In this document: piece after piece, positions 18,011 through 18,707 of the stretch
Numbering within the stretch: position 1 is the first letter of the stretch
How the letters are laid out: each line of letters starts with the position of its first letter
Virus record (IMG/VR): IMGVR_UViG_2740892230_000015
DNA: 35,688 bases
Strand: one strand, 5' to 3'
From: a virus
Taxonomy: Duplodnaviria; Heunggongvirae; Uroviricota; Caudoviricetes
The notes under the pieces: generated by a model
The model's input: the letters and a program-made list of their open reading frames with translations, nothing else
The model's database searches: none
Told to the model about the DNA's origin: nothing
Made by a program: the position numbers and the translations under genes

Positions 18011-18118
18011 TTACTGTTTCCTGAGTGCTTCTATGACGCCAGCAATACCGCCTACAACTATGCCAGCAATGACAACGAGAACAATTGGATGCTTGTCAGC
18101 AAAATCCCAGAAGCCCAT
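18011..18118 (-). CDS. small membrane peptide (35 aa)
   Basis: ATG overlaps the upstream stop (TGATG); MGFWDFADKHPIVLVVIAGIVVGGIAGVIEALRKQ is one predicted TM helix. Not in the ORF track (too short). Confidence 0.35.
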   Translation of the reverse strand: MGFWDFADKHPIVLVVIAGIVVGGIAGVIEALRKQ

Positions 18119-18282
18119 CACTGATCCTTAGAAGCTGTTTTTAATATCGGCCATACCAATGTTACAGCTACTGCTACCAACGCCCCGTCGGATAAAACCG
18201 ACAGGATTGTGCTGGTGAAATCCACCAGCACAGATAGCACGAGAAAAACCAAAGCCAGAATTAGACGTGCTTTTATAACCAT
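18118..18282 (-). CDS. small membrane protein (54 aa)
   Basis: ATG at 18282 overlaps the tciA stop (ATGA); hydrophobic translation MVIKARLILALVFLVLSVLVDFTSTILSVLSDGALVAVAVTLVWPILK. Preferred over the track ORF 18128..18322. Confidence 0.4.
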   Translation of the reverse strand: MVIKARLILALVFLVLSVLVDFTSTILSVLSDGALVAVAVTLVWPILKTASKDQ

Positions 18283-18707
18283 CAGATATACTGTTCCAGT
18301 GGCAATTGAAGAGCCTGGGCAATTTTCTTCAATTGCTCCTGCTCTTCTGCCCCAATGCCATCCTGGTCAGCAATATCAATGCATAGGCACAGAACATCTA
18401 CCGCATCATTAGTTCCAGACACGTCAGCCAGTTCACGTAAAGCCTGGGCATTCGCTCGGCGCGGCGAGGCTTCATATTGAGCGCGAATATTGGCGCTCAT
18501 CTGGGCAATTTCACCGGAGAACGGCGCAAAGGCAGGAAGTGCTGCAATGGTTTTTTCCAATACTGCAATTTCTTTCGCATCGCAGGTGCCGTCAGAGTAT
18601 GCAATGGAATATGCGCCCCAGACAGTCGCTTCCACCGCATCACGGTTTTCCATCTTCTTGACTCCGCCAGCCGCTTTGCGGAATTTCTTTTTGAGAATGC
18701 CGAGCAT
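18282..18707 (-). CDS. tciA: TerB-like protein (P1 TciA-like)
   Basis: 141 aa with TerB-like features (EIAVLEKTIAAL ... DVLCLCIDIADQDGIGAEEQEQLKKIA); ATG with GAGGT RBS. Confidence 0.6.
   Translation of the reverse strand: MLGILKKKFRKAAGGVKKMENRDAVEATVWGAYSIAYSDGTCDAKEIAVLEKTIAALPAFAPFSGEIAQMSANIRAQYEASPRRANAQALRELADVSGTNDAVDVLCLCIDIADQDGIGAEEQEQLKKIAQALQLPLEQYI

Follow-up and report, generated by a model that had tools for sequence, protein, structure and literature searches.

The tciA-tciB-tciC cluster of bacteriophage P1 and its overlapping TerB-like/DUF3927 gene pair in other phages

The DNA analyzed here, referred to as the window, is a stretch of 35,688 nucleotides (nt) from a virus of the Caudoviricetes (IMG/VR record IMGVR_UViG_2740892230_000015). 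Positions 18011-18707 of the window are the tciA-tciB-tciC cluster of bacteriophage P1, an identification that is practically certain. A megablast search with positions 17600-19700 returned P1 (AF234172, AF234173, NC_005856) at 99.9% identity across the full 2101 nt. Compared with AF234173, the TciA, TciB and TciC proteins were all identical, and the differences were one silent base in tciA (18303) and an indel near 20064, outside the cluster. The cluster is already known and has stood in curated GenBank annotation since 2004. The three gene names reportedly come from the P1 genome annotation of Lobocka et al. in 2004. The sole new element of this work is the documentation of TerB-DUF3927 as an obligate, mobile two-gene cassette, in which a TerB-like gene overlaps a gene of the DUF3927 family in several unrelated phage types. 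As an overall explanation of P1 tciABC, we favor, at somewhat better than even confidence, a TciA protein tethered at the inner membrane with an accessory envelope or exclusion role.

Gene layout and protein products

The three genes are arranged head to tail on the minus strand (Table 1), and the stop codon of one gene and the ATG of the next share one nucleotide in the motif TGATG at both junctions. An earlier note, made from the DNA letters alone, had described a TerB-like gene whose stop overlaps the start of a 54-residue hydrophobic open reading frame (ORF), and a stop of that ORF overlapping the start of a 35-residue ORF with a single transmembrane segment. Its gene calls were correct, with the two overlaps at 18282 and 18118, respectively; it did not recognize the genes as a named and published P1 locus. 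A Shine-Dalgarno sequence GAGG was found 8 nt 5' of the tciA ATG, and an AAGGA ends 6 nt 5' of the tciC ATG. The curated records of P1, P7 and SJ46 annotate all three genes. In relatives annotated by the Prokaryotic Genome Annotation Pipeline (PGAP), the TerB and DUF3927 genes are named and tciC is omitted.

The 64-residue ORF that an automatic gene list placed across the tciA/tciB junction was considered as a real gene and rejected as spurious. It had no match in the Pfam or PHROG libraries and was not hydrophobic, with a maximum of 0.44 (hydropathy is given throughout as the Kyte-Doolittle 19-residue maximum, for which the classical threshold is 1.6). The earlier note had held this frame to be the wrong choice. 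The relatives agreed: internal stops interrupt the frame in 6 of 10 of them, and the other 4 do not conserve its sequence. Between P1 and P7, the ratio of nonsynonymous to synonymous substitution rates (dN/dS) was about 0.35 in the tciB frame, and 0.70 and 2.4 in the other two frames, the frame of the 64-residue ORF being the one at about 2.4.

TciA matched the Pfam TerB model (PF05099) with 28.4 bits, above the gathering score of 24.4 (E = 2.1e-6), the best stretch covering profile positions 60-106, and it matched phrog_632 with an E value of 7e-62. Stronger matches to Pfam TerB were obtained with the TerB allele of P7 and D6 (54.3 bits, positions 2-113 of 118) and with the homologue of Salmonella phage FSL SP-076 (41.6 bits). 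An AlphaFold model of TciA, built with 30 homologues, had a predicted local distance difference test score (pLDDT) of 82.9 and consisted of a disordered basic N-terminus (residues 1-14) followed by a six-helix bundle. The nearest structures to this model were the TerB-fold entries 2OU3 and 2H5N, giving an all-alpha TerB-like fold. Judged from the model, and with a hydropathy maximum of 1.21, TciA is predicted to be a soluble TerB-fold protein. Two D-G...E motifs are present, S38-D-G-T-C-D-A-K-E46 and D114-Q-D-G-I-G-A-E-E122, and D39/G40, D116/G117 and E46 are invariant or near-invariant in the 30 homologues. Two repeated acidic motifs of this D-G...E kind were reportedly proposed as the metal-binding site of TerB by Anantharaman, Iyer and Aravind in 2012. 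The dN/dS of tciA was 0.03-0.08. EF-hand and centrin-like PDB matches to TciA were weak (E of at least 0.14) and were discarded.

TciB matched the Pfam DUF3927 model (PF13064) over positions 1-53 of 53 with 106.4 bits (E = 7.1e-31), and it also matched phrog_1470. Its hydropathy maximum was 2.63, with two hydrophobic segments, and on this sequence evidence TciB is classed as a DUF3927 protein with two predicted membrane helices. Basic residues are located at both ends of the protein (K4/R6 and K48/K52), and residues D21-F22-T23, S28, D32-G33 and P45 are invariant among 8 aligned sequences. Because the basic residues flank both ends, the pattern suggests a hairpin with N-terminus and C-terminus inside, with two invariant Asp residues placed toward the periplasmic side. 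The tciB frame was open in all 11 phages compared (P1, SJ46, P7, an Escherichia coli phage-plasmid, D6, two lambdoid phages, three SSU5-like elements and the N4-like phage FSL SP-076). A word-indexed search with TciB recovered close relatives alone. An exhaustive search gave 35 clusters of the DUF3927 family at 50% identity, all of about 50-60 residues. An 813-residue match in the DUF3927 search, considered as a TerB fusion, was instead a repetitive hydrophobic protein.

TciC matched phrog_23152 over its full length (E = 3.7e-27). Its hydropathy maximum was 2.73 in one segment, P11-I29, which carries G19xxxG23xxxG27, and TciC is by the same kind of prediction a single-pass membrane peptide. 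These values, together with those of TciB, bear out the membrane helices that the earlier note had expected in both small ORFs, and the two frames are also conserved in relatives, that of tciC within the P1/P7/SJ46/D6 lineage. The tciC ORF was intact in 47 of 47 P1/P7/D6-type IMG/VR loci, with V/I/A/G swaps in the hydrophobic core. D6 keeps a counterpart of 36 residues with the same overlap, the same start (M-x-F-W...D-K-x-P), a hydrophobic core and a basic tail, in DNA beyond the blastn alignment. Matches in a tblastn search with TciC were found in Punavirus records only, and tciC was confined to the P1/P7/SJ46/D6 lineage.

We regard tciC as very probably a real gene. The competing view, that it is a chance open frame between tciB and the tRNA and that tciA and tciB alone are functional, is improbable. 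The frame has only 35 codons and is uncalled by PGAP, and the cassettes of SSU5-like, lambdoid and N4-like phages do without it. Its dN/dS between P1-type and SJ46-type sequences, 0.64 from 13 differences only, was no lower than in the two closed frames, which counts against a coding gene; between SJ46-type and L009-type sequences it was 0.13, and for both comparisons the substitutions are too few to decide. Against a chance frame stand the same TGATG/ATGA overlap and AAGGA ribosome-binding site, the constant openness of the frame where the other two frames are closed by 2-4 stops each, the exchange of hydrophobic for hydrophobic residues, and the persistence of the D6 peptide despite divergence beyond blastn detection.

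The TerB-like/DUF3927 cassette in other phages

In several phage types that are unrelated to one another, the TerB-like and DUF3927 genes overlap and stay together as a conserved cassette of two genes. A profile of TciB recovered 80 IMG/VR loci, and in every one of them a TerB-like coding region ends at the tciB start. Among seven distant DUF3927 representatives (41-50% identity), six had the same order of TerB followed by DUF3927, usually with a 1-nt or 4-nt overlap, and the junctions in relatives read TGATG, ATGA or GTGA. The cassette was found in P1-like phage-plasmids (P1, P7, D6, SJ46), in SSU5-like phage-plasmids, where it adjoins RNase H, and in the N4-like Salmonella phage FSL SP-076 (Schitoviridae), where its neighbors are a dUTPase and a MoxR-like ATPase. 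In lambdoid phages it lies between the Q antiterminator, often with tRNAs, and a region of the STnc100 small RNA (sRNA), a sialate-esterase and a holin. The same slot is occupied by stx in Stx phages (2026 Pas sRNA preprint). The cassette is common: among 5426 complete E. coli genomes, 674 had a match to the P1 cluster, and 785 plasmid records had one as well.

The cassette differs in its details among these phages. P7 (terB-upf69.4-upf69.6) and D6 (orf8-orf7) have the same overlapping three-gene layout as P1 in the same place between the tRNAs and ban. The TciC of P7 is identical to that of P1, whereas that of D6 is strongly diverged. The TerB allele of P7 and D6 has 144 residues and is about 35% identical to P1 TciA, with the stronger Pfam match given above. 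In the lambdoid, SSU5-like and N4-like cassettes, a TerB-like gene of 141-148 residues is followed by an overlapping DUF3927 gene of 50-58 residues, without tciC, and the TciA-type proteins are 73-87% identical to P1 TciA. As judged by this distribution, tciC is an add-on of the P1/P7/D6 lineage.

Several further features of single loci were noted. Between P1 and P7 or D6 (loci L002, L008 and L009), nucleotide similarity resumes about 30 nt inside tciB (about 18252-18282), and the first approximately 10 TciB residues change along with the TerB allele, whereas the 3' part of tciB and tciC that follow the two alleles are almost the same; this could be a recombination boundary or co-adaptation. 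One distant TerB-DUF3927 cassette (L096/L097, 1219-1623) is followed by a Tad2-like gene (PF11195), of an anti-Thoeris protein family. The one distant DUF3927 gene without a preceding TerB-like gene, which follows a TfpB-like gene, lies downstream of the Q antiterminator (L101, 1092-2079). In one lambdoid locus (L076, cassette at 2567-3162), the order is RusA, a 231-residue ORF, three tRNAs, a TerB pseudogene, tciB, STnc100, a 616-residue ORF and a putative holin. By position and inspection, the 231-residue ORF was read as the Q antiterminator and the 616-residue ORF as sialate-esterase-like.

Operon context and flanking elements

The coordinates of the cluster and of the elements around it are collected in Table 1. 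The order in the P1 ban operon is Oban, a dicF-like region, tRNA-Asn, tRNA-Thr, tciABC, tRNA-Ile, ban and dbn. The tRNA-Thr/tRNA-Asn pair is 731 nt upstream of tciA, and the gap holds upl and plp on the opposite strand. The placement of the cluster between tRNA genes, as given in the earlier note, was seen on both sides. Oban consists of two C1 operator sites that overlap, with 0 mismatches to the consensus in one and 2 in the other, and in the P7 record the operator regulates the tRNAs as well. A promoter consensus scan of 17500-20400 gave no promoter-like site, so an internal tciA promoter is unsupported, and from the tRNAs to ban the minus strand had no terminator-like site. This absence fits the annotated single ban operon. 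The suggestion that the tci genes, the tRNAs and ban are one transcription unit agrees with the GenBank annotations of P7 and of P1, with the C1-controlled Oban upstream.

Table 1. Features of the tciABC region and their positions in the window
Feature	Position	Strand	Description
tciC	18011-18118	-	35 residues from ATG 18118, or 36 from GTG 18121; predicted single-pass membrane peptide
tciB	18118-18282	-	54 residues; DUF3927; two predicted hydrophobic helices
tciA	18282-18707	-	141 residues; TerB-family, predicted cytoplasmic
Spurious alternative ORF	18128-18322	-	64 residues; TTG start; out of frame across the tciA/tciB junction
ban	16281-17645	-	DnaB-like replicative helicase; downstream, same operon
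tRNA, anticodon CAT	17932-18007	-	3 nt 3' of the tciC stop; Met by ARAGORN, tRNA-Ile2 (ileX-like) in GenBank
tciA leader	18741-18860	-	Partial STnc100/PasD-like RNA match and conserved hairpin (Rfam, alignment)
plp	19091-19468	+	Overlaps tRNA-Thr
tRNA-Thr(TGT)	19439-19514	-	ARAGORN, GenBank
tRNA-Asn(GTT)	19517-19592	-	ARAGORN, GenBank
Oban (Op72ab)	20250-20277	-	Bivalent C1 repressor operator at the ban operon promoter; consensus matches and GenBank Oban/Pban

The sole terminator-like hairpin on the minus strand (20084-20065; a stem of 8 bp, then a run of seven T) lies inside the GenBank dicF-like region (about 20048-20149), which separates Oban from tRNA-Asn. Its role could be attenuation of transcripts entering the tRNA-tci-ban operon or termination of a DicF-like sRNA; an Rfam scan gave no DicF match at E of 0.1 or below. 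The tRNA with anticodon CAT is 89% identical to E. coli ileX, and its designation in the P1 record as tRNA-Ile2 implies lysidine modification. The 3' end of plp overlaps tRNA-Thr by 30 nt (19439-19468). The upl-plp pair is antisense to the ban-operon transcript, and convergent transcription could affect the expression of tciABC. The non-coding DNA between tRNA-Ile and the ban start (17749-17930) is 81-88% identical to unannotated DNA of the unrelated phages phiV10, TL-2011b, ZX5 and Stx2c-converting phages, and might represent a conserved element passed on together with phage tRNA genes. In D6 (L008, 63-213 and 682-768), the feature table of the record has the tRNAs on the strand opposite to tciA-tciB, whereas Rfam placed them on the same strand, as in P1; this is probably a strand error in the record.

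The leader of tciA gave a sub-threshold match to STnc100 (RF02076; 33.4 bits against a gathering score of 47, model positions 31-147). P7 and D6 showed the same partial match ahead of their TerB genes, and in lambdoid loci full-length STnc100 matches above the threshold (87-101 bits) were located directly downstream of tciB. In an alignment of the P1, P7 and D6 leaders, a hairpin, CCGGG-AAGCA-CCCGG, was conserved about 40 nt 5' of the tciA ATG, and its stem in D6 read CCTGG...CCAGG, a compensatory change. In the Pas sRNA preprint, STnc100 is described as related to PasD, and TerB is one of the neighbors given for the PasA and PasC sRNAs.

Possible function of the cassette

Published observations on these genes are few. 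A CRISPR interference (CRISPRi) screen found tciA, tciB and tciC non-essential for P1 plaque formation (PMC10695390). Two peptides of TciA were detected in CsCl-purified virions and dismissed by the authors as non-structural (PMC9024508). Transcriptomic papers list the tci genes among cell-division-control genes by name only. Among 77 P1-like phage-plasmids, tciABC is one of eight variable regions, its link to phage inhibition is unclear according to the authors, and about half of the subgroup-1 members are without the tci operon (PMC9603915). NCBIfam gave no meaningful match for the tci proteins. The earlier note had suggested a membrane-stress or exclusion module; this reading is unsupported and repeats the decades-old guess from homology that gave the tci genes their name (tellurite/colicin resistance, inhibition of cell division).

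We propose the following for tciABC. The stop/start overlaps would couple translation, and the proteins would be made together; the constant adjacency of the TerB-like and DUF3927 genes, with stop and start overlapping, suggests that their products are co-translated and are physical partners. TciB, with or without TciC, may then anchor TciA on the cytoplasmic side of the inner membrane, much as TerB is reported to pair with TerC. We consider a membrane-anchored TciA-TciB(-TciC) complex reasonably probable. The cassette lies on lytic transcripts, early and C1-controlled in P1 and late, downstream of Q, in lambdoid phages, and it also occurs in Schitoviridae; this suggests that it probably acts in the infected or induced cell and not as a lysogenic-conversion gene. 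Speculatively, the complex might modulate a property of the envelope, for example the handling of ions or metals, the integrity of the membrane, or the entry of colicins or competing phages. It would confer a conditional fitness benefit and be dispensable for plaque formation. A physiological role of this envelope kind is put forward only tentatively.

A known parallel is the TerB of the ter operons (terZABCDE(F) of IncHI2 R478, E. coli O157 and Klebsiella), which belongs to the same PF05099 family, has the same helical fold and is likewise a soluble protein with a membrane partner. According to PMC11003894, which cites Turkovicova 2016, TerB associates with the membrane protein TerC. The membrane partner there is the multi-pass TerC, whereas here it would be a DUF3927 hairpin of 54 residues. 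The tciABC genes do not lie within a terC/terD/terE operon: the genes around them are tRNAs, upl, plp, ban, dbn and dmt, and none of the terC, terD, terE, terZ and terA genes of ter operons is among these neighbors (the rest of the window was not scanned with TerC or TerD models). A possible second likeness is offered by the co-chaperone DjlA, in which an N-terminal domain grouped with TerB is fixed to the inner membrane, on its cytoplasmic side, through the protein's own transmembrane helix. DjlA differs in that the anchor is in the same polypeptide and the output is a J-domain; in the tci system a second peptide, with its translation coupled to that of TciA, would be the anchor, and there is no output domain.

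Several results weigh against a tethered TciA with an envelope or exclusion role. The P1-type TciA is a weak TerB match with partial coverage, and PDB sequence searches with TciA alone or with a 30-sequence profile matched no TerB structure. No genuine natural TerB-DUF3927 fusion was found among the 35 representative clusters, and one of the seven distant DUF3927 genes follows a TfpB-like gene and not TerB. When an ORF of a public assembly in which a frameshift joins TciA to TciB (P0015) was modeled with AlphaFold 2, the TciB part formed two helices with a kink at D32-G33 at a low pLDDT of 56-72, and no interface was readable. In many lambdoid prophages (L063-L094), the TerB-like gene is interrupted by an early stop (CEAS*K) and no longer has its start, and the overlapping tciB-like gene (GTGA) is intact; TciB may act alone, or these prophages may simply be decaying. 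The accessible literature contained no experiment addressing the function, localization or interaction of tciABC, and PADLOC-DB 2.0 gave no defense-model match for TciA, TciB or TciC at E up to 1.

Among the other functions considered, one is a counter-defense or superinfection-exclusion module at the inner membrane, directed against competing phage DNA and colicins or against membrane-targeting abortive-infection effectors. We hold this to be possible but unlikely. Its support is purely contextual, with no PADLOC match: the cassette is accessory, variable and horizontally moving, it sits in the accessory slot held by stx in Stx phages (Pas sRNA preprint), one distant copy is followed by the Tad2-like gene of the anti-Thoeris family, and ter operons that contain terB inhibit phages and make cells resistant to pore-forming colicins (PMC7371120; PMC9603915). 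P1 already has a dedicated exclusion system, simABC, in a separate variable region (PMC9603915). The cassette is also carried by an N4-like Schitoviridae phage, which we take to be virulent, and exclusion by a lysogen would be irrelevant there if this is so.

TciB and/or TciC could instead be toxic or pore-forming peptides of the holin-like or type I toxin kind, depolarizing the membrane for host arrest or lysis timing, with TciA as a regulator or antidote; this we judge less probable still. Both peptides combine a very small size with a very high hydrophobicity, and TciC has the GxxxGxxxG pattern. In LMessi and Kp4866-6 the pair is followed directly by a Phage_holin_8 gene and the lysis cassette, and in L076 the esterase and the holin lie downstream of it. 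However, neither TciB nor TciC matched a holin or toxin family in Pfam, PHROG or NCBIfam, and the P1 operon is early, C1-controlled and far from the lysis genes. Knock-down leaves plaque formation unchanged (PMC10695390), and the many prophages that keep an intact tciB with a disrupted TerB are hard to square with an unneutralized toxin.

A genuine tellurite-resistance determinant, with TciA acting as TerB and P1 lysogens being resistant, is very unlikely: the Pfam TerB match, the gene name and the database labels "tellurite resistance" speak for it, but the neighbors (tRNAs, upl/plp, ban, dmt) include none of the other ter genes named above, published resistance constructs are terBCDE(F) and not terB alone (PMC11003894), the authors describing D6-like elements call the operon incomplete and say that the resistance predictions need testing (PMC6799933), and the tci genes are behind the C1-repressed Oban, so that strong expression in a lysogen is not expected.

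In itself the finding carries little weight, since these genes have been annotated for two decades in the best-studied transducing phage. It does illustrate that automatic gene calling misses very small membrane genes or assigns them the wrong frame. The comparative result, an obligate coupled TerB-DUF3927 pair in at least four phage architectures with a lineage-specific tciC, could focus tests of phage-borne TerB. A broader and more speculative idea, to which we give a low probability, is that the TerB-like and DUF3927 proteins make up a self-contained, horizontally mobile module acting at the inner membrane of an infected cell without the other ter genes, as a minimal TerB/TerC-like ion or metal gate and/or as an exclusion or counter-defense device against colicins, superinfecting phages or abortive-infection effectors, and that this module is tuned by TciC in P1. 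If true, such a module would explain the presence of the cassette in the stx accessory slot of lambdoid prophages, and it would provide the first defined function for phage-borne TerB proteins and for DUF3927.

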